Shown here piece by piece: positions 6,374 through 57,558 of a stretch of DNA of 64,000 bases. The stretch is from an uncultured Planctomycetia bacterium (GTDB taxonomy: Bacteria > Planctomycetota > MHYJ01 > WSZJ01). Within the stretch, counting starts at the first letter, position 1; the number at the start of each line of letters is the position of its first letter. Location: NCBI GenBank assembly GCA_964590435.1, contig CAZPWT010000008.1, positions 83,880 through 147,879 on the forward strand, read 5' to 3'. The position numbers and the translations under genes are program-made. The notes under the pieces are model-generated. The model worked only from the letters and a program-made list of their open reading frames with translations. It had not been told where the DNA came from and did not search any database.

Positions 6374-7860
6374 CGTCCCGGGTCCCTTCCGCACTCCTCC
6401 GTCACCGCCCTCAACCCCGCCAGCCTCTCCCCCACCGGGTGCTTCCCCGTGAACCGCCACCGCCAGTTTCCTTTCGCCAGCCCCGGCGTGTTCATCCGCG
6501 CTTCGCTCCCGAGGATCAGCACGTCCTGCAGCGGCGCGATCGCCAGCGCGGCGACGCTCGACCACGCGAGCTTGATGAACCTCCACGCCACGTCGCTCCC
6601 GTCGAACTTCAGGTAGAGCCTCACGGGGTGCCGTTCGACGTCGGGGAGCGCTTCCCACCACCCCGTCGTCGTGTCGTTGTCGTGGGTGCCGGTGTAGACG
6701 GCGGTGTTGGGGTCGTAATTCTCCGGGAGGAACGGGTTCTTCGGGTCGCCGTCGAAGGCGAACTGGAGGACGCGCATGCCGGGGAGGCCGACCTGCTCGC
6801 GGAGGTGGCGCACGGAGTCCGTGATGATCCCCAGGTCCTCCGCGAGGAACGGCAGCCCGCCCAGGGCTTTGCGGAGGGCCTCGAAGAACGGCGCTCGCGG
6901 CCCGGGCACCCACTTCCCTTCCTTCGCGGATTTCGCGCCGGCGGGGACGTGCCATGCGTCCTGGAAGCCGCGGAAGTGGTCGATGCGGGTGAGGTCGAAG
7001 AGGCGCGCGGCGTGCTTCGCGCGGCGGATCCACCAGTCGTAGCCGGTGCGGCGGAGGGCATCCCAGTCGTAGAGCGGGTTCCCCCAGAGCTGGCCGTCCT
7101 TGGCGAAGTAGTCCGGCGGGACGCCGGCGACGACGGTCGAGCGGCGGTTCGCGTCGAAAAGAAAAACATCGGTCGCGGACCAGGCTTCGCAGGAGTCCCC
7201 CGCGACGAAGATCGGCATGTCCCCCAGCAGCCGGACGCCCCGCGCCGCGGCGTACGCCCGCAACGCCGCCCACTGCCGGAACCACAGGAACTGCCGGAAC
7301 CGGTGCTCGTCGACCGCGGCCGCCAGTTCCTTCCGGGACCGCTCCAGCGCCGCCGGCTTCCGCAGCCGCAGCTCCTCGGGCCACTTCGTCCACGACTCGC
7401 CACCCCGCGCGTCCTTGATCGCCGCGTAGAGCGCCCAGTCGTCGAGCCACGAGGCTTCTTCCTTCGCGAACCGCTCCACCTCGACGCGCAACCGCGAGCC
7501 GCCCCTGAAATTCGCCCAGGCTTTGCGGAGAAGCGCTTCCCGTGCCGGACGGGCCGCGTCGTAGTCGGCGACGCCGTCGTCGAAGGAGCGCGCCGGGAGG
7601 TCGGCGGGGGCAAGAAGGCCATCGGCAACGAGATCCTCGGGGCTGACCAGCAGCGTCTCCCCCGCGAACGTCGAGTAGGCGGCGTAGGGCGAGTCACCCG
7701 CACCGAACGGTCCGACAGGGAGCATCTGCCACCAGGTCTGCCGCGCGGCGGCCAGCGCGTCGATCCACGAGCGTGCGGCGGGGCCGAGGTCGCCGACGCC
7801 GAAGCGCGACGGGAGCGAGGTGACGGAGAGGAGGAGGCCGGAGGAGCGTGGGAGGGGCAT
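6370..7860 (-). CDS. malQ: 4-alpha-glucanotransferase (amylomaltase)
   Basis: Motifs SGLLLSVTSLPS, MPIFVAGDS, NPFLPENY, YTGTHDNDT; start placed at internal ATG (ORF extends to 7947). Confidence 0.85.
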   Translation of the reverse strand: MPLPRSSGLLLSVTSLPSRFGVGDLGPAARSWIDALAAARQTWWQMLPVGPFGAGDSPYAAYSTFAGETLLVSPEDLVADGLLAPADLPARSFDDGVADYDAARPAREALLRKAWANFRGGSRLRVEVERFAKEEASWLDDWALYAAIKDARGGESWTKWPEELRLRKPAALERSRKELAAAVDEHRFRQFLWFRQWAALRAYAAARGVRLLGDMPIFVAGDSCEAWSATDVFLFDANRRSTVVAGVPPDYFAKDGQLWGNPLYDWDALRRTGYDWWIRRAKHAARLFDLTRIDHFRGFQDAWHVPAGAKSAKEGKWVPGPRAPFFEALRKALGGLPFLAEDLGIITDSVRHLREQVGLPGMRVLQFAFDGDPKNPFLPENYDPNTAVYTGTHDNDTTTGWWEALPDVERHPVRLYLKFDGSDVAWRFIKLAWSSVAALAIAPLQDVLILGSEARMNTPGLAKGNWRWRFTGKHPVGERLAGLRAVTEECGRDPGR

Positions 7861-8085
7861 GGCGTGGAAGTGTAGCAGCGCGGCGGGCAGTGTGGCGCAG
7901 TAGCCCTCGGCCTGGGAGAAGGCCGTGTTCAGGCCGTTTGCCTCCAACGAAAAACGGCATGAACACGGAAAGCACAGAGGGACGGAAAGACACGGAACGG
8001 TCAGTCTTAGGATAGAAGCGGATGGGATGGACTTCCGGCAGGTAGGCAGGAGACCTCGCAGGCCTGAGGCAAGTTACGGCCGCGC

Positions 8086-26776: not shown

Positions 26777-26805
26777 AACGGCCACGAGGAGCCCTCGTGG
26801 CCGTT
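26777..26805. terminator. Hairpin, probable bidirectional intrinsic terminator
   Basis: Perfect 13-bp stem AACGGCCACGAGG / CCTCGTGGCCGTT with 3-nt loop, T-rich flank on both strands, at a convergent gene junction. Confidence 0.5.
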
Positions 26806-26862: not shown

Positions 26863-27162
26863 CTACCCCTTTTCCGGCCCTCTCGACCCGAGCTCGCGAT
26901 CGATCTCGAGCAGCGCCACGGGATCGTTCTTGATGAGATTGAACTTCGCGACAATGTCCCTCGCCGACTTCTCTTCCTCCACCTGCTCCGTCAGGAACCA
27001 CTGCAGCTCGACCATCAGCGAGAGCGCCTTTTCCTTCTGCGCCAGCTCGTACAGCGCGTCGATCCGCTTCGAAACGCTCAGTTCCTGCGCCAGCGCCGCT
27101 TCGAAGACTTCCTGCATCCCCTTGAACTTCACCTTCGGCTCCGGGATCGCGTTCAGCTTCAC
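26863..27162 (-). pseudogene. Truncated 3-prime copy of the ferritin gene (about 100 C-terminal codons, diverged)
   Basis: About 95% identical at DNA level to 28123..28435 (ferritin C-terminus) with a few amino-acid substitutions; lacks the N-terminal half of ferritin. Confidence 0.6.
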
Positions 27163-28033: not shown

Positions 28034-28064
28034 CGGCCACGAGGTTCACTCGTGGCCGAATTTT
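28034..28064. terminator. Hairpin terminator downstream of ferritin
   Basis: 10-bp stem CGGCCACGAG / CTCGTGGCCG with 5-nt loop, followed by AATTTT on plus and TTTCTCTGTT on minus. Confidence 0.5.
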
Positions 28065-48690: not shown

Positions 48691-49119
48691 CTACTTCTTC
48701 CCCTTCACGCCCTCTTCGAACGCGCTCCACGCCAGCAGCGCGCATTTCACGCGCACCGGGAACTTCCTCACGCCCTCCAGCGCCACGATGTCGCCCAGCG
48801 GGTCGGCTTCGTGCTTTTTGGTCTCGCCGCGCATCATCTTCTTGAAGAGCGCCGCGCTGGACATGGCGTCGGCCATGGGCTTGCCCTTGAGGATTTCGGT
48901 CATGAGGGAAGCGGAAGCCTGGGAGATGGCGCAGCCGCGGCCGCGGAACTTGACGTCGGCGACCTTGCCGTCCTTGAGGGAGACGTGGAGGGTGATGTCG
49001 TCGCCGCAGAAGGGATTGTTCATGGAGATGGAGACGTCGGGCGAGGCGATTTCGCCGCGGTTCCGGGGAGCCTTGAAGTGCTCCATGATGATTTCCTGGT
49101 ACAGGCTTTCTAGCGACAT
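48691..49119 (-). CDS. sufU: SUF-type Fe-S cluster scaffold SufU/NifU-like (copy 1)
   Basis: NPFCGDDITL, GRGCAISQASAS and VKCALLAW conserved Cys motifs. Confidence 0.8.
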   Translation of the reverse strand: MSLESLYQEIIMEHFKAPRNRGEIASPDVSISMNNPFCGDDITLHVSLKDGKVADVKFRGRGCAISQASASLMTEILKGKPMADAMSSAALFKKMMRGETKKHEADPLGDIVALEGVRKFPVRVKCALLAWSAFEEGVKGKK

Positions 49120-50339
49120 CCGAAGAACTCCCGTGTGCGGTTGAGGGAATCGACCATCTGGTCGATCTCGGACGTGGAAGTATACACGTAGAAGCTGGCG
49201 CGCGCCGTAGCGACGACACCGAGGCGGCGCATGAGGGGCTGGGCGCAGTGGTGGCCGGCGCGGATGCAGAGGCCGTCCTGGTCGAGGCAGGTGGCGAGGT
49301 CGTGGGGGTGGATCGGCTCGAGGGTGAAGCAGGCGACGCCGCCGCGGGGGCCGGACTGGGGGCCGAAGAGGACGCAGCCGGGAATGGCGGCGAGTTTCTT
49401 CTGGGCGTAGTCGGCGAGGGCTTCCTCGTGGGCGTGGACGGCGTCGAGGCCGAGCCCTTCGAGGTAATCGATGGCGGCGCCGAGGCCGGCGACCTCGGCG
49501 ACGGCGGGGGTGCCGGGCTCGAAGCGGTGCGGCGGGTCGCGGAACGTGGACTTGTCGAGGTACACCTCGAGGATCGTCTCACCGCCGACCATGAACGGGT
49601 CCATCTCGCGCAGGATCTCCGGCCGCGCCCAGAGCACGCCAACCCCCGTCGGGCCGCACATCTTGTGCGCGCTGAACGCGTAGAAATCGCAGCCGAGCGC
49701 GCCGACGTCGACCTTCATGTGCGGCGCCGCCTGCGCCCCGTCGGCGAGGAGCAGCGCCCCGACCGCGTGCGCCTTCGCCGCGATCTGCGCGATCGGGTTG
49801 ATCGTGCCGAGGACGTTCGAGGCGTGGCAGAGGGCAACAAGCCTGGTTTTCCGGGTGAGAAGGGCGTCGAGCGTCGAGAGGTCGAGGCGGCCTTCGTCCG
49901 TAATCGGGATGTGCTTCAGCACGATCCCCCGGTCGCGCTTCAACAGGTGCCACGGGACGAGATTCGAATGGTGCTCCATCTCCGTCAGCAGCACCTCATC
50001 GCCCGCCTTCAGGAACTTCCGCCCCCACCCGTGCGCCACGAGATTCACGGCCTCGGTCGTATTGCGGACGTAGATCACGCCCTCGGCCGACGGCGCGCCG
50101 ATGAACTTCGCGATCTTCTCGCGCGTCCCCTCGAACATCGCCGTCGCTTCCTCGGAAAGCTTGTACGCCCCGCGGTGGACGTTCGCGTTCATCTCGCGAT
50201 AGAAGCGCGCCATCGCTTCGATCACGGCCTCGGGCTTCTGCGACGTCGCGGCGCTGTCGAGATAGACGAGCGGCTTGCCGCGGACCTGGCGTGAGAGGAT
50301 CGGGAAGTCGGCGCGCACGCGAGCGGGATCGAGGTGCAT
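49110..50339 (-). CDS. sufS: Cysteine desulfurase SufS (copy 1)
   Basis: RADFPILSRQVRGKPLVYLDSAATSQKP, PLP-lysine SAHKMCGPTG, active-site RAGHHCAQP; start at internal ATG 50339 preceded by GAGG. Confidence 0.85.
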   Translation of the reverse strand: MHLDPARVRADFPILSRQVRGKPLVYLDSAATSQKPEAVIEAMARFYREMNANVHRGAYKLSEEATAMFEGTREKIAKFIGAPSAEGVIYVRNTTEAVNLVAHGWGRKFLKAGDEVLLTEMEHHSNLVPWHLLKRDRGIVLKHIPITDEGRLDLSTLDALLTRKTRLVALCHASNVLGTINPIAQIAAKAHAVGALLLADGAQAAPHMKVDVGALGCDFYAFSAHKMCGPTGVGVLWARPEILREMDPFMVGGETILEVYLDKSTFRDPPHRFEPGTPAVAEVAGLGAAIDYLEGLGLDAVHAHEEALADYAQKKLAAIPGCVLFGPQSGPRGGVACFTLEPIHPHDLATCLDQDGLCIRAGHHCAQPLMRRLGVVATARASFYVYTSTSEIDQMVDSLNRTREFFGCR

Positions 50340-50423
50340 TTGAGCCTCATTAAACCGGCGCGGCGTGCGACTGCAGGAAAAAAGAGGCTCGACGGATTGA
50401 TTCGCTGCCCCCGGGCCGGTAGG

Positions 50424-50458
50424 ATTCCGATACACATTCGGAGTATCGGAATGTGTAT
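50424..50458. promoter_or_regulatory. Palindromic operator candidate upstream of vapB
   Basis: ATTCCGATAC-N9-GTATCGGAAT perfect 10-bp inverted repeat with overlapping ATACACATTCGG half-sites, ending 12 nt before the vapB Shine-Dalgarno. Confidence 0.45.
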
Positions 50459-50470
50459 AAGGAGGGATTG

Positions 50471-50683
50471 ATGCGCCGTACGAACATCGTCATCGACGAG
50501 ATCCTAGTCCGCCGGGTCATGAAGGCCTTCGGCGTGAATTCCATGAAAGAAGCGGTCCACAAGGCCCTTCAGCAGGCCGACGAGCGCTCGAAGACCTACG
50601 AGGCCATGCGGGAACTCCGGGGCAAGCTCCACTGGGAAGGCGACATCGACGCATGGCGGAGGAATCGGCTTGATCGTCGTTGA
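50471..50683 (+). CDS. vapB: Type II antitoxin VapB-like
   Basis: AAGGAGGG before ATG; 70 aa; overlaps the downstream PIN gene. Confidence 0.7.
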   Translation: MRRTNIVIDEILVRRVMKAFGVNSMKEAVHKALQQADERSKTYEAMRELRGKLHWEGDIDAWRRNRLDRR

Positions 50684-51065
50684 CTCCGCGGTCTGGGTCG
50701 CCTGGTTCAACGGCCGCGCGGACCCGCACGTGAGCCGCCTCGACCGTGGCCGCGCCCGGAAAGAGGATTTCGCCACCGCACCCCTGATCATCACCGAGGT
50801 GCTGCAGGGCTTTGCTGACGACCGCGAGTTCGAGCGAGCGCGCGACTTCATGATCCGCCTGCCGTCGCTGGCCCTCGACGAGAACGGTCATGTCGAGGCG
50901 GCGCGACTGTACCGGACCCTTCGGAAGCGGGGTTTGACGATCCGGGGCACGGTGGACTGCATCATCGCCCAGACGTGCATTTCCAACGCCTGCGAGCTCC
51001 TCAGCCCCGACCGCGATTTCGCCGCCATAGCGAAGCACTCTGCGCTGAAGTTGTGTGCGGTTTGA
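50670..51065 (+). CDS. vapC: PIN-domain toxin VapC
   Basis: IVVDSAVWVAWF, PLIITEVLQG and DCIIAQTCI PIN motifs; TTG start overlapping vapB by 14 nt. Confidence 0.75.
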   Translation: MIVVDSAVWVAWFNGRADPHVSRLDRGRARKEDFATAPLIITEVLQGFADDREFERARDFMIRLPSLALDENGHVEAARLYRTLRKRGLTIRGTVDCIIAQTCISNACELLSPDRDFAAIAKHSALKLCAV

Positions 51066-51110: not shown

Positions 51111-51563
51111 TCATTCCGTGCTGACCGTCTCCGCCTTCCCCTTCAGCGCCGCCTCCAGCGCGTGCCACGAGAGCGTCGCGCACTTCACGCGCACCGGGAA
51201 CTCGGCCACGCCGGCGAAGATCGCGAGCTTGCCCAGGTCTTCGCCCTCGTAGGGCTTGCCGGCGTCGCGCGTCACCATCGCGTGGTACTTGCGGAAGAGC
51301 GCTTCCGCGTCGGCCTTCGACTTGCCGATGAGCTCCTGGGTCATGATGGAGGCGGCGGCGCGGGAGATGGCGCAGCCGTTGCCGAGGAAGCCGATGTCGG
51401 CGATTTTCTCGCCGTCCATCTTGAGGAAGACCTGGATATGGTCGCCGCAGAGGGGGTTGGCGCCGGCGGCCTTGTGGGTGGCGTCGGGGATGAGCTTGAA
51501 ATTCCGGGGGCGCTTGTAGTGCTCGAGGATGACGTCGCCGTAGAGGTCGGTGAGGTCGCTCAT
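51111..51563 (-). CDS. sufU: SUF-type Fe-S cluster scaffold SufU/NifU-like (copy 2)
   Basis: NPLCGDHIQV, GNGCAISRAAAS, VKCATLSW; ATG overlaps sufS stop (ATGA). Confidence 0.8.
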   Translation of the reverse strand: MSDLTDLYGDVILEHYKRPRNFKLIPDATHKAAGANPLCGDHIQVFLKMDGEKIADIGFLGNGCAISRAAASIMTQELIGKSKADAEALFRKYHAMVTRDAGKPYEGEDLGKLAIFAGVAEFPVRVKCATLSWHALEAALKGKAETVSTE

Positions 51564-52843
51564 GACGTGAACACCTCCACGACCTTGCGGAGGGCGGCCT
51601 CGAGGGCGAGGGCTTCCTCCGGAGTGTTGTAGAACGCGACGGAAGCGCGGGCGGTGGCGGGGAGGCCGAGGCGGGTCATGACGGGCTGGGCACAGTGGTG
51701 GCCGGTGCGGATGGCGACGCCCTCGCGGTCGGCGATGGTGCCGATATCGTGGGGGTGGATGCCCTCGAGGACGAAGGAAGCGACGCCGGCCTTGTCCTTC
51801 GCGGTGCCGACGAGTTTCGCGCCGGGGACGCGGAGGATGGCGGCCTCGAAGGCGGCGAGGAGTTCCTTTTCGCGGGCGGCGATGCGGTCCATGCCGATCG
51901 CCGACAGGTAGTCGATCGCGGCGCCGAGTCCGACGACGCCCTCGATGTTCGGGGTGCCGGCTTCGAACTTCGCGGGGACCTCGGCCCAGGTGGACTTCTC
52001 GAAGCTGACGCTGGAGATCATGTCGCCGCCGCCCTGCCACGGGGGAAGCGAGTTCCAGAGGGCGAGCGGGGCCCAGGCGACGCCGATGCCGGTGGGGGCG
52101 CACATCTTGTGGCCGCTGAAGATATAGAAGTCGGCGCCGATGTCTTTCACGTTCACGGGCTGGTGCGGGACGGCCTGCGCGCCGTCGACGAGGACCGTCG
52201 CGCCGGCGGCCTTCGCCATCCGGGCGATCTCGCGGATCGGGGTGACGGTGCCGAGGGCGTTCGAGACGTGCGTGACGGCGACGAGCTTCGTCTTCGGCGA
52301 CAGGAGCTTCGCGTACTCCGCCATGTCCAGCTCGCCCGCGTCGTTCATGGGGATGACGCGGATCTTCGCGCCCTTCTCTTCGCACAGCAGCTGCCACGGG
52401 ACGATGTTCGAGTGGTGCTCGAGCGTCGAGAGCACGATCTCGTCGCCCTTCCCGATCCGCGTCCGCCCGAACGTCTGGGCGACGAGGTTGATCCCCTCGG
52501 TGGCGCCGCGGACGAAGACGCACTCGCGGGGATCGGCGGCATTGATGAAGCGGGCGACTTTCTTCCGGACGCCCTCGTACGCGATCGTCGCCTGCTCGGA
52601 GAGCCAGTGCACGCCGCGGTGGATGTTGGCGTTGTGCGATTCGTAGTACTCGCGCACCGCGTCGATGACGACCTGCGGCTTCTGGCTCGTCGCGGCGTTG
52701 TCGAGGTAGACGAGCGGCTTGTTGCGCACGGACTGCTTCAACGCCGGAAAGTCGGATCGCACGGCAGCCCAGTCGACCGGGCGGTCGGGGCCAGGCCCTT
52801 CAACCTTCGACCTTCGACCTTCGACGCCGTTCTCCGTCCTCAA
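51560..52843 (-). CDS. sufS: Cysteine desulfurase SufS (copy 2)
   Basis: RSDFPALKQSVRNKPLVYLDNAATSQKP, SGHKMCAPTG, RTGHHCAQP; TTG start placed to overlap the sufD stop (TTGA), a GTG about 75 nt downstream is an alternative; ORF 51560..53389 has an Arg-rich upstream extension. Confidence 0.75.
   Translation of the reverse strand: MRTENGVEGRRSKVEGPGPDRPVDWAAVRSDFPALKQSVRNKPLVYLDNAATSQKPQVVIDAVREYYESHNANIHRGVHWLSEQATIAYEGVRKKVARFINAADPRECVFVRGATEGINLVAQTFGRTRIGKGDEIVLSTLEHHSNIVPWQLLCEEKGAKIRVIPMNDAGELDMAEYAKLLSPKTKLVAVTHVSNALGTVTPIREIARMAKAAGATVLVDGAQAVPHQPVNVKDIGADFYIFSGHKMCAPTGIGVAWAPLALWNSLPPWQGGGDMISSVSFEKSTWAEVPAKFEAGTPNIEGVVGLGAAIDYLSAIGMDRIAAREKELLAAFEAAILRVPGAKLVGTAKDKAGVASFVLEGIHPHDIGTIADREGVAIRTGHHCAQPVMTRLGLPATARASVAFYNTPEEALALEAALRKVVEVFTS
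52797..52828. repeat. GTCGAAG heptamer tandem array (reverse-complement copy)
   Basis: Minus strand reads ggcgtcgaaggtcgaaggtcgaaggttgaagg, shortly after the sufD stop; same unit as 43002..43026 with one extra copy. Confidence 0.6.
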
Positions 52844-54186
52844 GCGTTCCTCCCCGCCTCCAGCAACCTCTGCACGATCGACCGGTCGAGCCACTCCCGC
52901 GTCTCCGGGATCGCGAACTGCACCAGCACGTCCCGCGCGAAAGCATACGTCAGGATCCCCCGCGCCAGCTCCGGCGCGATGCCGCGCGACCGGCAGTAGA
53001 ACACCATCTCCTCGTCCAGCTGCCCCACCGTCGCCCCGTGTGTGCACTTCACGTCGTCCGCGAAGATCTCCAGCTGCGGCTTCGTGTCGACGCGGGCGTC
53101 GTCGGAGAGGAGCAGGTTCTTGTTCGTCTGCTTCGCGTCCGTCTTCTGCGCGTCCTCCCTCACGAACACCTTCCCGTTGAACACCACGTGCGACCGCCCG
53201 TTCAGGATCGCCTTGTAGAACTCGCGGGAAGGGCAGTTCGGGACGGCGTGGTCGATGACGGTGTGGTGGTCGATGTGCTGGTGGCCGGACGCGATCGAAA
53301 GGCCAAGGAACTGCGCCTCTGCGCGCTGGCCGGCGAGGAAGGCGCCGAGGTCGTGGCGGAAGAACTCCGCGCCGGTGACGGCGCTGCACTCCTGGAAGAA
53401 TGCGCCTTCGCCGAGCCGGGCCTGCGTGTTGGCGACGTGGTACGCGTTGCCGCTCTCCGCCTCGAGCCGGATCGACACGAGGCGCGCTCCGGCGGCCAGG
53501 TCCACCTCGGTCACGGCGTTGGTGAAGTAGAGGTCGCAGGAGGGCGAAGCGTAGGCTTCGACGACCTGGACCTGCGCGCCGGCGCCGAGCACGAACAGGT
53601 GCCGCGGGTGGCTGGCGAGGTAGGACTCGTGCGACAGGTGCAGGACAAGGACCGGCTTCTCGACGACTTTCCCTTCAGGCACGTACACGAACGCCCCGTC
53701 CTGGAACAGCGCGGTGTTGAGCGCCGTGAACGCCGTCGCGCCCGGCTTCGCGAGCTTCCCGAGCCGCGGCTCGATGATCGCGCGGTGCTTCTCGAGCGCC
53801 TCCGCGAGGCTGCACACCACGACGCCCGCCGGGAGCCCGTCGAGCTTCGAGAGCTCCTTCGAGAAGAACCCGTCCACGACCACGATCCGCGGCGAATTCT
53901 CCAGCCCGAACGTGAACAGCTTCGCCGTGTTCGCGACCAGCGCGTCCTTCTTCGGCTCCAGCGACTGCCGGAACCCCGTCTTCACCAGCGTCTCGACGCT
54001 CGTGTACCGCCACTCCTCGTCCGCGGTCGTCGGGAACCCGCGCTCCCGGAACGCCGCCGCGCCGAGCTTCCGCAACTCCGCGAGCCACGGGAAGCGCTTC
54101 CAGCCCGCGCTCCGCTCCCCCGCCTCGAGGTGGGCGGGCCAGCAGCCGCCGAGGACGGCGGGCTTCTCGAGGGCGGCCGTGCTCAT
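52840..54186 (-). CDS. sufD: Fe-S cluster assembly protein SufD
   Basis: 448 aa SufD-like sequence; ATG overlaps sufC stop (ATGA). Confidence 0.85.
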
Positions 54187-54947
54187 CGCGCGGCTCCCGC
54201 GACCGCCGGCTCCTTGACCCAGTCGTAGCCGCGCTTCTCCAGCTCCAGCGCGAGATCCTTGCCGCCCGACTTCACGATCTTCCCGTCGGACAGCACGTGC
54301 ACGAAGTCCGGCACGATGTAGTTCAGGAGGCGCTGGTAGTGCGTCACGACGAGGAAGGCGCGGTCCTTCGAGCGCAGCTTGTTGACGCCGTCGGACACGG
54401 CGCGAAGGGCGTCGATGTCGAGGCCGGAGTCGGTCTCGTCGAGGATGGCGAGCTTCGGCTCGAGGACGGCGAGCTGGAAGATCTCGTTGCGCTTCTTTTC
54501 GCCGCCGGAGAAGCCCTCGTTCACGGGGCGGTTCAGGAGCGACTCGTCGATGTGGAGGATCTTGGACTTCTCCTTGAGGAGCTTGTTGAAGTCCATCGCG
54601 TCGAGCTCGGGCTCGCCGCGGTGCTTGCGGATCTCGTTGTAGCCGGCGCGGAGGAAGTACGCGTTGGAGACCCCGGGGATTTCGACGGGGTACTGGAACG
54701 CAAGGAAGATGCCCTCTTTGGCGCGGTCTTCGGGGGACTTGTCCGCGAGGTCTTCGCCCCTGTAGGAGATCGTGCCGCCCGTCACCGTGTAAGCGGGGTG
54801 CCCCGCCAGCACTTGCGCGAGCGTGCTCTTCCCCGACCCGTTGGGCCCCATGATGGCGTGGACTTCCCCCGCCTTCACGCTGAGCGAGAGCCCCTTGAGG
54901 ATTTCCTTCTTCCCGACCGTAGCGCGCAGGTCCTTGATCTCGAGCAT
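54183..54947 (-). CDS. sufC: Fe-S cluster assembly ATPase SufC
   Basis: Walker [14 protein letters not shown] signature FSGGEKKR, Walker [13 protein letters not shown]; start at internal ATG after an AG-rich RBS. Confidence 0.9.
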
Positions 54948-55011
54948 CTCAGTCCTTCCCTTTCCGTTTTTCTGTTGTCCTTCACTGGCCGCTGGCAACT
55001 GGCCGCTCGCC

Positions 55012-56445
<1,434 letters not shown>

Positions 56446-56467
56446 GGCGTTTCTCCTGACGGGCTAA

Positions 56468-56490
56468 AATAGGACTAAATTTGTCCTATT
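56468..56490. promoter_or_regulatory. Palindromic operator candidate upstream of sufB
   Basis: AATAGGAC-taaattt-GTCCTATT, perfect 8-bp inverted repeat with 7-nt AT-rich spacer, 23-45 nt upstream of the sufB start. Confidence 0.45.
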
Positions 56491-56613
56491 CCTGCTGCGA
56501 AATTTCGGGGGCACCTCCGTCGCCTGGCTCCAATCCTCTTCGATTCCGGGCGACAGGGATGCCCCCGCCGGACCCTCAATGCTAGTCGATCGCAGAAGAG
56601 TGTCAAGCGCGGC

Positions 56614-57558
56614 CTACGAGGCGGACTTGAGCCGGTTCTTCTCGGCGGAAGCGCGCTCCAGCGCGCCCTCCACGAGCCCCTGGAAGGCCGCGGCATCCGC
56701 CACGGGGGCCGGGAAGGCGCCCACTCCCACGCTGATGGAGATCTTCCCCCCCGGCATCTCCGCCCGGTTCGCGAACTGGGAGTTCGCGACCATCGACCGG
56801 ATCCAGTCCGCCACCTCGATCGCCTTCTCCTGGTCCGTCTCCGGCATCAGCACCGCGAACCGGTCCGGCCCGTACCGCACCAGCAGGTCCGTGTCCCTCA
56901 CCTGCTGCTGGAAGATCTTCGCGATCCCCTGAACCAGCTGGTCCGCCGACTGCCGCCCGAACGCCGACGCGTACTTGTCCAGGTAGTCCACCTGCGCCAG
57001 CGCCAGCGCCACCGGCCGCTCCGCGCGCTTGGCCCGCTTGAGCTCCCTCGCGAACATCTCGTCGAAGAGCTTCCGCGAGGCCAGCCCGGTCATCGCGTCC
57101 ACGGTCGCCGCCGCCTCGGCGCCCTTCTGGACCGCGGCGGCCTGCTGCCGCAGGTCGGCGACGGCGCCGACGAGCCCGCCCAGGTCGCGCTCGAGCTCCT
57201 TGATGCGCGTCCCCATCGCCGTCACCGCCGTGGCATCGCGGCGCGCCGACGCGATGAACAGCGCGACCACGCCGCAGCCGAGCGCCGCGGCGGACCGCAC
57301 GGCGTCGGCCAGTTCTCGCGGCCCGCCGCGCGGCGGACGGAACAGCGCCGGCACCGCCAGCGCCAGCGACAGCCCAAGCAGCGCCAGGCTCAGCCTCGAC
57401 ACGAACACCGCATGCGGGTCCGCCCCGCCGCGCCGCGCGATCACCCGCGACTGGATCGCCGCCCACGCCGCCATCACCACGAAGACGACGCTTCCGATCG
57501 CGTGCACCATCTGCGGCACGCTGAGCGACAGCGACCGGACCGAAGCGGGATCAGGCAT
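56614..57558 (-). CDS. Membrane-anchored GGDEF-domain protein with degenerate active site
   Basis: N-terminal TM helices; GGDEF fold (DAMTGLASRKLFDEMF) but signature reads RYGPDRF instead of RYGGEEF. Confidence 0.75.
   Translation of the reverse strand: MPDPASVRSLSLSVPQMVHAIGSVVFVVMAAWAAIQSRVIARRGGADPHAVFVSRLSLALLGLSLALAVPALFRPPRGGPRELADAVRSAAALGCGVVALFIASARRDATAVTAMGTRIKELERDLGGLVGAVADLRQQAAAVQKGAEAAATVDAMTGLASRKLFDEMFARELKRAKRAERPVALALAQVDYLDKYASAFGRQSADQLVQGIAKIFQQQVRDTDLLVRYGPDRFAVLMPETDQEKAIEVADWIRSMVANSQFANRAEMPGGKISISVGVGAFPAPVADAAAFQGLVEGALERASAEKNRLKSAS

Follow-up and report, generated by a model that had tools for sequence, protein, structure and literature searches.

Organization of the suf locus and the palindrome upstream of sufB

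The window, by which we mean the whole 64-kb stretch of DNA that was analyzed (68% GC), carries on its minus strand a suf operon that begins with sufB and continues with sufC, sufD, sufS, and sufU (Table 1), the gene order of relatives also being sufBCDSU. The upstream neighbor of sufB encodes a GGDEF protein, and a small membrane protein gene lies ahead of the GGDEF gene; no regulator gene adjoins the operon, as the preliminary description had noted. A conserved ORF of 173 aa that precedes the GGDEF gene was considered as a possible HTH regulator and rejected on the basis of its hydrophobic, membrane-protein-like sequence.

Table 1 Positions of the suf operon, the elements of its leader, and other features of the window
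Feature	Position	Strand	Basis or remark
GGDEF protein gene, upstream neighbor of sufB	56614-57558	same orientation as sufB	
Sigma-70-like promoter, TTGACA-16-TAGCAT	56579-56606	-	consensus scan, 10/12 matches, 0.0 expected
GC-rich leader hairpin, ~60 nt, between promoter and operator	56506-56566	-	folding, covariation
Candidate operator	56468-56490	.	23-bp palindrome AATAGGAC-TAAATTT-GTCCTATT
Palindrome core GGAC-N7-GTCC	56472-56486		
Shine-Dalgarno AGGAGA of sufB	56452-56457	-	6 nt before GTG, 10 nt after palindrome
sufB, first gene of operon	55012-56445	-	GTG start; NCBIfam NF008773 SufB, 910 bits
Remaining operon, sufC-sufD-sufS-sufU	51111-55019	-	NCBIfam matches for SufC, SufD, SufU
sufC	54183 to ~54947	-	NCBIfam SufC
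sufD	52840-54186	-	NCBIfam SufD
sufS	51560 to ~52843	-	gene order in relatives
sufU	51111-51563	-	NCBIfam SufU
vapC toxin gene	50670-51065	opposite to suf operon	after suf operon
Second sufS-sufU pair	49110-50435 and 48691-49119		vapC and pair together, region 48691-51065
GC-rich palindrome GGCCACGAGG-N3-CCTCGTGGCC, two copies	26780-26802 and 28035-28057		1.25 kb apart
Ferritin-like ORF	26863-27162	-	

Direct reading of the plus strand gave AATAGGAC TAAATTT GTCCTATT, a perfect 8-N7-8 inverted repeat that, when taken as an 11-1-11 element, is symmetric at 10 of 11 positions. Because sufB occupies the minus strand and begins with GTG, the palindrome lies 23 to 45 nt ahead of the start codon. No other part of the 168-nt intergenic region is as rich in AT (65-70% versus 20-50% elsewhere there), and the GGAG within the sufB Shine-Dalgarno sequence is kept in relatives. 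The preliminary description had reported the perfect repeat, its distance from the GTG codon, and its place in an AT-richer stretch of the suf upstream region, and all three were confirmed by the sequence read, the base composition, and the sufB coordinates.

By itself, an 8-N7-8 palindrome exceeds chance only weakly in this DNA: four perfect examples were seen in the window compared to 2.5 ± 1.5 expected from shuffles. The particular sequence was found once when up to three mismatches were allowed (0.02 expected), and a weight matrix derived from suf-linked sites identified it as the sole match in the window, with 44.9 bits against a shuffle maximum of 7.8. Neither the mismatch pattern nor the weight matrix revealed a second site in the window. 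As judged from sequence comparison, the main support for the palindrome is its conservation, not palindrome statistics.

Conservation of the palindrome and its leader in related Planctomycetota

Orthologous loci (L001-L006) were taken from the Planctomycetota MAGs with the closest SufB proteins (86-98% identity); with SufD proteins that are 69-90% identical, the relatives are not near-identical strains. The GGDEF-sufBCDSU synteny is retained in four of these loci; in L004 and L005 another gene, in divergent orientation, lies upstream. When the sufB upstream regions were aligned, GGAAyAGGACwAAwTTAGTCCnnTT was invariant across five related Planctomycetota lineages, the flanks diverging and the leader around this core being only ~60% conserved. 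For the clade as a whole, the consensus takes the form of an 11-1-11 palindrome, AATAGGACTAA-n-TTAGTCCTATT; L001 carries the perfect 23-bp form (AATAGGACTAA-T-TTAGTCCTATT), L004 has GGACTAA-A-TTAGTCC, and the window copy corresponds to the consensus with one spacer change. The spacer too is conserved in the clade (TAAnTTA). Phylogenetic footprinting had been proposed in the preliminary description as a check on the site, and its outcome favors it: the core is unchanged in the orthologous suf leaders of all five lineages.

The sigma-70-like promoter identified by the consensus scan starts 7 nt past the stop codon of the upstream GGDEF gene, and its TTGACA together with a -10-like hexamer is kept in all relatives, including the two loci with a different upstream gene. 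On the basis of sequence, the transcription start is predicted at ~56572, which would place the operator at about +82 to +104. Across the window clade the sole sigma-70-like promoter is found 46-92 nt upstream of the operator, with a covarying hairpin between them; with this promoter ~90 nt upstream, there is no recognizable -35/-10 overlap of the sort seen at RisR sites. Planctomycete promoters are poorly defined, and no good -35/-10 hexamers overlap the palindrome; TATTTT was considered as the possible -10 of a proximal sigma-70 promoter over the palindrome and was rejected for want of an acceptable -35. The arrangement is tighter in Bdellovibrionales, Nitrospirota, and Azospirillum, where the operator core begins 1-2 nt beyond a TTGACA-16/18-TAnnAT promoter and covers the transcription start, and a -10 hexamer abuts the operator in other phyla (L068, L106, L027).

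The leader has a minimum free energy of -61.6 kcal/mol (z = -4.8), and its GC-rich hairpin exhibits five compensatory pairs among four close relatives; L006 and L004 either lack it or have a different one. Provided that the promoter is correctly called, this hairpin is probably a 5'-terminal stabilizing stem-loop of the suf mRNA. A scan of the leader against Rfam yielded no family above threshold and only sub-threshold miRNA-precursor models, as for a generic long hairpin. The palindrome arms behave differently from the true hairpin beside them: in the alignment of relatives, six of the eight pairs never vary, the remaining two change to wobble or mismatch only, and none of the eight shows a compensatory change, so the arms lack the signature of a structured RNA. 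Since the adjacent hairpin covaries in four sequences, covariation would be visible in the palindrome were pairing the selected trait. The symmetry also runs through the 7-nt "loop" and therefore cannot be explained by base pairing, as it would be by a dimeric DNA binder. These comparisons indicate that what is conserved in the palindrome is the sequence of a symmetric DNA motif.

Occurrence of the core in other genomes

The 16-mer core was searched for with the pattern AGGACWAAWTTAGTCC in 185,579 genomes, one per species (GTDB species representatives), and at least 120 stretches matched. Approximately 26 of the 120 matches listed were tied to Fe-S biogenesis, in at least seven phyla; ~18 of the 120 are located upstream of suf operons, and ~8 further listed matches stand ahead of Rrf2 genes in stretches that, as retrieved, contain no sufB. 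Adjacency to suf or Rrf2 genes was enriched more than 100-fold among the listed genome-wide matches. The core stands directly before sufB in other Planctomycetota (L033, L070, L095, and L118) and in Terracidiphilus (L047 and L071). In the listed matches from other phyla it precedes a gene of 130-160 aa that heads sufBCD, sufS, or sufS/iscS-like operons, the hosts being Azospirillum and other Alphaproteobacteria, a gammaproteobacterium, Acidobacteriota, Bdellovibrionales, Kiritimatiellia, and Nitrospirota. The product of this gene is an Rrf2 protein with three conserved cysteines. These site-linked Rrf2 proteins score 86-116 bits with TIGR00738 and 68-135 bits with TIGR02944 ("SUF system Fe-S cluster assembly regulator"), are ~25-40% identical to one another, and have T. 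potens IscR, CymR, RsrR, E. coli IscR, and NsrR as their closest solved structures. Suf operons and three-cysteine Rrf2 genes of different phyla share the candidate operator motif.

Conservation of the core across phyla is partly a matter of ascertainment, because the search pattern fixed the core; the flanks outside the pattern are AT-rich and symmetric (aATA...TATt) with 0.8-0.9 bits per position. A near-identical operator of 17-23 bp (AGGACTAAnTTAGTCCT with ATA/TAT flanks) is common to Planctomycetota, Acidobacteriota, Nitrospirota, Bdellovibrionota, Kiritimatiellia, and Alpha- and Gammaproteobacteria. Copies away from suf precede an FTR1 iron permease gene, feoB regions, genes for hemerythrin, mntP, and cydA, an rpoH-like sigma factor gene, and clpB. 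The preliminary description had expected further copies of the site ahead of Fe-S or iron-homeostasis genes; none occurs elsewhere in the window, but such copies do exist in other genomes, before suf operons and Rrf2 genes, and the feoB, FTR1, hemerythrin, and mntP sites in those genomes are of the predicted kind. Many core matches in AT-rich Firmicutes are terminator-like, with the form AAAAAGGAC...GTCCTTTTT.

In a protein-first test, 80 metagenome loci (L128-L207) were picked solely for encoding a related Rrf2 protein, and 78 of these were usable. GAC-N7-GTC was present within 120 nt upstream in 71 of the 78, often twice, and was never found in coding controls. The neighboring bases are mostly CCGAC/GCGAC-N7-GTCGG, not GGAC-N7-GTCC; subgroups therefore differ in the base pair beside the core, and this pattern suggests that the base pair beside GAC co-varies with the regulator subgroup. 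The outcome supports the motif class, although the proteins retrieved did not include the cognate regulator of the window site. Most of these loci have tandem ATATCCGAC-N7-GTCGGATAT operators that abut TAGAAT-like -10 hexamers, and the half-sites are frequently asymmetric (GCGAC...GTCGG).

Several of the retrieved loci have features of their own. In two of the Planctomycetota loci (L033:6160-6400 and L070), the main site is followed after ~40 nt by another, weaker GGAC-N7-GTCC (aaacaGGACTGCAGGGGTCCaatat) that also precedes sufB, and a sufE-like gene is divergent from sufB. The Kiritimatiellia MAG JBFXGK01 possesses at least five copies of ATATAGGACTAAWTTAGTCCTATAT (L015:5790, L075:3433, L041:5571, L101:1439, and L108:2472), none of them beside suf. 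Phased A-tract repeats (GGCCAAAAAn, period ~10-11 nt) stand ahead of several of these copies; convergent genes flank at least one copy, and one is located ~400 nt upstream of a Cas9-like ORF of 1032 aa; the copies represent either a large regulon or a repeat element built on the same palindrome. In the Pirellulales contig CAYQKF010000115, the palindrome is part of a 180-nt unit repeated at 258-nt spacing with 94% identity (L062:7474-7653 and 7732-7911), a third copy being found at the contig end (L092:102); no ORF of 100 aa or more lies within these repeats.

Comparison with characterized operators

RisR represses both the suf and isc operons in M. xanthus (Sourice et al. 2023, PMC9973013). 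It belongs to Rrf2 subgroup IS6, and its spectrum suggests a [4Fe-4S] cluster; the holo-RisR footprint, T(t/g)GAC-N7-GTCC(t/a) with AT-rich flanks, was obtained at the suf and isc promoters, where it overlaps the -35/-10 hexamers, and risR is seemingly driven by the suf promoter, as was inferred from a Psuf::risR construct (PMC9973013). The window element has the same xGGAC-N7-GTCCx inverted repeat with AT-rich flanks ahead of a suf operon. Its AGGAC-N7-GTCCT (56471-56487) contains the GAC-N7-GTC core, its flanks read AAT-AGGAC...GTCCT-ATT with ATA/TAT kept in the sites of other phyla, and it occupies the control region of an Fe-S biogenesis operon, conserved in the orthologous leaders. By analogy with RisR, a holo-repressor released on iron limitation or oxidative stress would be expected. 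The two cases differ in that no regulator gene is linked to the window site, whose sole recognizable promoter is ~90 nt upstream behind a conserved hairpin; in addition, IS6 members were not reported in Planctomycetes (PMC9973013), and the spacer of the window clade is conserved (TAAnTTA).

The E. coli IscR type-1 consensus is ATASYYGACTRWWWYAGTCRRSTAT, with the core GACTRWWWYAGTC (PMC3899308). The protein that binds it is an Rrf2 dimer with an Fe-S cluster, and the genes under its control serve Fe-S biogenesis. The palindrome shares its GAC-N7-GTC core, and the 13-bp core GACT-R-WWW-Y-AGTC is matched at 13 of 13 positions by the relatives (GACTAATTTAGTC) and at 12 of 13 by the window copy (GACAAATTTAGTC, sufB strand). 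The outer part is different: the ATA/TAT elements stand 3 bp off the core in the 25-bp type-1 layout (ATASYY-core-RRSTAT) but are separated from GAC by a single base here (ATAGGAC), 2 bp closer, giving a 23-bp rather than a 25-bp site, and the base beside the core is G/C (GGAC..GTCC), compared to Y/R in E. coli. E. coli suf is subject to activation by apo-IscR via a type-2 site, not to type-1 repression (PMC9973013). The type-2 site, AWARCCCYTSnGTTTGMnGKKKTKWA, has a CC...GG orientation (PMC11475020), whereas the palindrome reads GG...CC with a 7-nt spacer and does not have the type-2 layout. The Fur box is a AATGATAATnATTATCATT-like 19-mer (PMC1698941). The palindrome bears no resemblance to that consensus. 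Cyanobacterial SufR, an ArsR/DeoR-like Fe-S repressor also found in actinobacteria, has the operator CAAC-N6-GTTG, and sufR is adjacent to suf. The palindrome, by contrast, lacks CAAC-N6-GTTG, and no HTH gene is found beside suf in the window or in the relatives. The preliminary description had matched the half-site to the consensus of no regulator that it could name with confidence; the half-site does fit published motifs, namely both the RisR footprint (PMC9973013) and the GACTRWWWYAGTC core of IscR type-1 sites (PMC3899308); of the families that it had named, Rrf2 is favored by the evidence, whereas ArsR/SufR and Fur are disfavored.

A 19-bp palindromic IscR-box was predicted before alphaproteobacterial suf loci (Rodionov et al. 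2006, PMC1698941), and gamma- and alphaproteobacterial IscR boxes precede suf loci (PMC1698941). Alphaproteobacterial loci of the TIGR02944 type (Azospirillum, Rhodospirillales, and others; L027, L031, L053, L073, and L087) have the identical core AGGACTAAnTTAGTCCT upstream of regulator-sufBCD operons, and the L087 site also has a ...GTCCTGTTTTAG tail in common with the window site. In those loci the operon opens with the regulator gene and the site lies at the promoter of that gene, which is thereby autoregulated; in the window clade, by comparison, the site is directly before sufB and the regulator is unlinked.

Search for the regulator

No Rrf2 gene was detected in the 64-kb window by tblastn with 14 site-linked Rrf2 proteins (best E = 0.058), and Pfam and NCBIfam scans of 20 window ORFs revealed no DNA-binding regulator and no fur gene. 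Site-linked Rrf2 alignments (A2 and A3) were used for two profile searches of a 5.8-billion-protein collection. The best 120 matches listed were proteins of Alphaproteobacteria, Acidobacteriota, Kiritimatiellia, and Verrucomicrobia; no protein named as Planctomycetota was among the best 120 listed in either search, which is not evidence of absence. Rrf2 genes do occur in Planctomycetota, both in cultured species and in a Gemmataceae MAG. Those of the cultured Planctomycetes surveyed belong to the "IS2" and "other" groups only, with none in IS6, and some are unlinked to Fe-S genes (Table S3, PMC9973013), consistent with a trans-encoded regulator. In the Gemmataceae MAG (GCA_019752375.1), an Rrf2 ORF that was uncalled in the source lies directly upstream of sufB (L208:210-731); it encodes 173 aa with three cysteines and scores 104 bits with TIGR00738. 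The DNA upstream of this ORF contains AGTTAC-N11-GTAACT and an IscR-type-1-like ATAGTTGACCATTTAGTAC, without GGAC-N7-GTCC, and the suf operon of this MAG is interrupted by a hicAB toxin-antitoxin pair.

Proposed function of the palindrome

We consider it likely that the palindrome is the operator of a trans-encoded, Fe-S-sensing, homodimeric Rrf2 repressor of the RisR/IscR kind. The preliminary description had proposed a candidate operator for an iron- or Fe-S-sensing suf regulator, and the footprint in relatives and the copies elsewhere lend support to that proposal. The repressor would be a winged-helix Rrf2 homodimer carrying an Fe-S cluster and encoded elsewhere in the genome. When Fe-S supply is adequate, the cluster-loaded dimer would occupy the two GGAC half-sites together with their AT-rich flanks, immediately ahead of the sufB ribosome-binding site, and hold transcription of sufBCDSU low; upon iron limitation or oxidative stress, the cluster-free regulator would leave the DNA and the operon would be derepressed. 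Repression might be exerted by occlusion of an unrecognized proximal promoter or by a roadblock ~80-100 nt past the sigma-70-like promoter. We infer that an Rrf2 protein of the host organism binds the site and that the holo form is the repressing form. Several findings count against this interpretation, namely that no Rrf2 gene is present in the window, that no protein named as Planctomycetota is among the best 120 matches listed in the profile searches, that the surveyed cultured Planctomycetes have no Rrf2 protein of the RisR group IS6, that the sole sigma-70-like promoter is ~90 nt away behind a structured leader, that the one Planctomycetota example of a suf-linked Rrf2 gene (L208) is without GGAC-N7-GTCC, that the window has a single site, that the cross-phylum conservation of the core is partly ascertainment, and that repeat families with no relation to suf contain the same palindrome.

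Only two features set the window site apart: its regulator is unlinked, and the operator is positioned downstream. There is a small chance that the operator became detached from its regulator gene and moved into the leader, 50-100 nt past the promoter, where the repressor would act as an elongation roadblock or the element would function at both the DNA and RNA levels. In this layout the operator would follow the conserved 5' stem-loop and adjoin the ribosome-binding site, and such a roadblock, if true, would differ from the promoter occlusion known for RisR and IscR. Another possibility is that the binder is an uncharacterized IS2 or "other" Rrf2 protein that has converged on a RisR-type site.

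The preferred assignment to an Fe-S-sensing Rrf2 repressor has to be weighed against three other accounts of the palindrome. The operator could be bound by a dimer that is not an Rrf2 protein or by an Rrf2 protein that senses cysteine (CymR-like, IS2), nitric oxide, or redox state. We regard this as rather unlikely, although an Rrf2 protein of this lineage was encountered neither by tblastn in the window nor among the best 120 matches listed of the two profile searches, cultured Planctomycetes have IS2 (the group of CymR) and unclassified Rrf2 proteins and not IS6 (PMC9973013), and the operator is placed differently from those of RisR and IscR. Against it stand the three-cysteine Rrf2 identity of the linked regulator in every other phylum, among the listed matches, where a regulator gene accompanies the exact core, the fit of the motif to RisR and IscR type-1 sites and not to the Fur box, IscR type-2, or SufR sites, and the nature of the target, which is the Fe-S assembly operon itself. 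It is less probable still that the palindrome functions at the RNA level in the sufB 5' UTR, as a hairpin with an 8-bp stem and a 7-nt loop, affecting translation or mRNA stability or serving as the site of an RNA-binding protein. The palindrome would indeed be transcribed if the promoter at 56579-56606 is active, is predicted to fold as a hairpin within the leader, and sits just before the ribosome-binding site, 10 nt from the Shine-Dalgarno sequence. Its eight pairs nonetheless show no compensatory change, and its variable positions give mismatches, while the true hairpin alongside covaries. Conservation and symmetry extend to the "loop" (TAA-n-TTA), a feature for which pairing offers no explanation; symmetry through the center, as in AATAGGACTAA-T-TTAGTCCTATT, is expected of a dimeric DNA binder, whereas a hairpin loop would be asymmetric. 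The leader has no match to an Rfam family, and the same primary sequence recurs across phyla beside genes for a DNA-binding protein. In several phyla, moreover, the palindrome abuts a -10 hexamer and is therefore at the transcription start, not inside a leader.

Hardly any weight can be given to the third account, in which the palindrome arose by chance from the base composition or is the terminator of the GGDEF gene and has no regulatory role. The near-chance frequency of 8-N7-8 palindromes in the window and the many terminator-like matches in AT-rich Firmicutes (AAAAAGGAC...GTCCTTTTT) would fit it. No T-run follows the palindrome, however, its weight-matrix score is far above the shuffle maximum, and the core is invariant among relatives that are not near-identical strains even though the flanks have diverged, including L004 and L005 with their different, divergent upstream gene. 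This account is effectively refuted by the footprint in the clade and by the suf-linked copies, with their more than 100-fold enrichment of suf/Rrf2 adjacency among the listed genome-wide matches.

A full-text literature search combining Rrf2 and sufB found no published work on the regulation of Fe-S biogenesis in Planctomycetota. The palindrome provides a concrete candidate cis-element for the suf operon of an uncultured clade and would extend the GAC-N7-GTC operator class (RisR/IscR-type) to another phylum. That an operator is shared by Rrf2 proteins of only ~25-40% identity points to a protein-DNA recognition code that is either very old or very constrained, and the shared operator offers a means of predicting Fe-S regulons in metagenome-assembled genomes. 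In other respects this is the expected type of control for a suf operon and leaves current understanding unchanged; the palindrome is most likely a further example of an already known regulatory switch.

Additional elements of the window

After the suf operon comes a vapC toxin gene in the opposite orientation, and beyond it lies a second, diverged sufS-sufU pair (Table 1). The second SufS and SufU are ~50% and 44% identical, respectively, to the operon copies of relatives, and this SufS scores 526 bits with the model for the family 2A encapsulin cargo cysteine desulfurase, under the model cut-off of 800. No operator-like site precedes the second pair. The GC-rich palindrome GGCCACGAGG-N3-CCTCGTGGCC occurs twice in the window, its first copy ~60 nt downstream of the ferritin-like ORF, and the two copies may be shared terminator or repeat elements.
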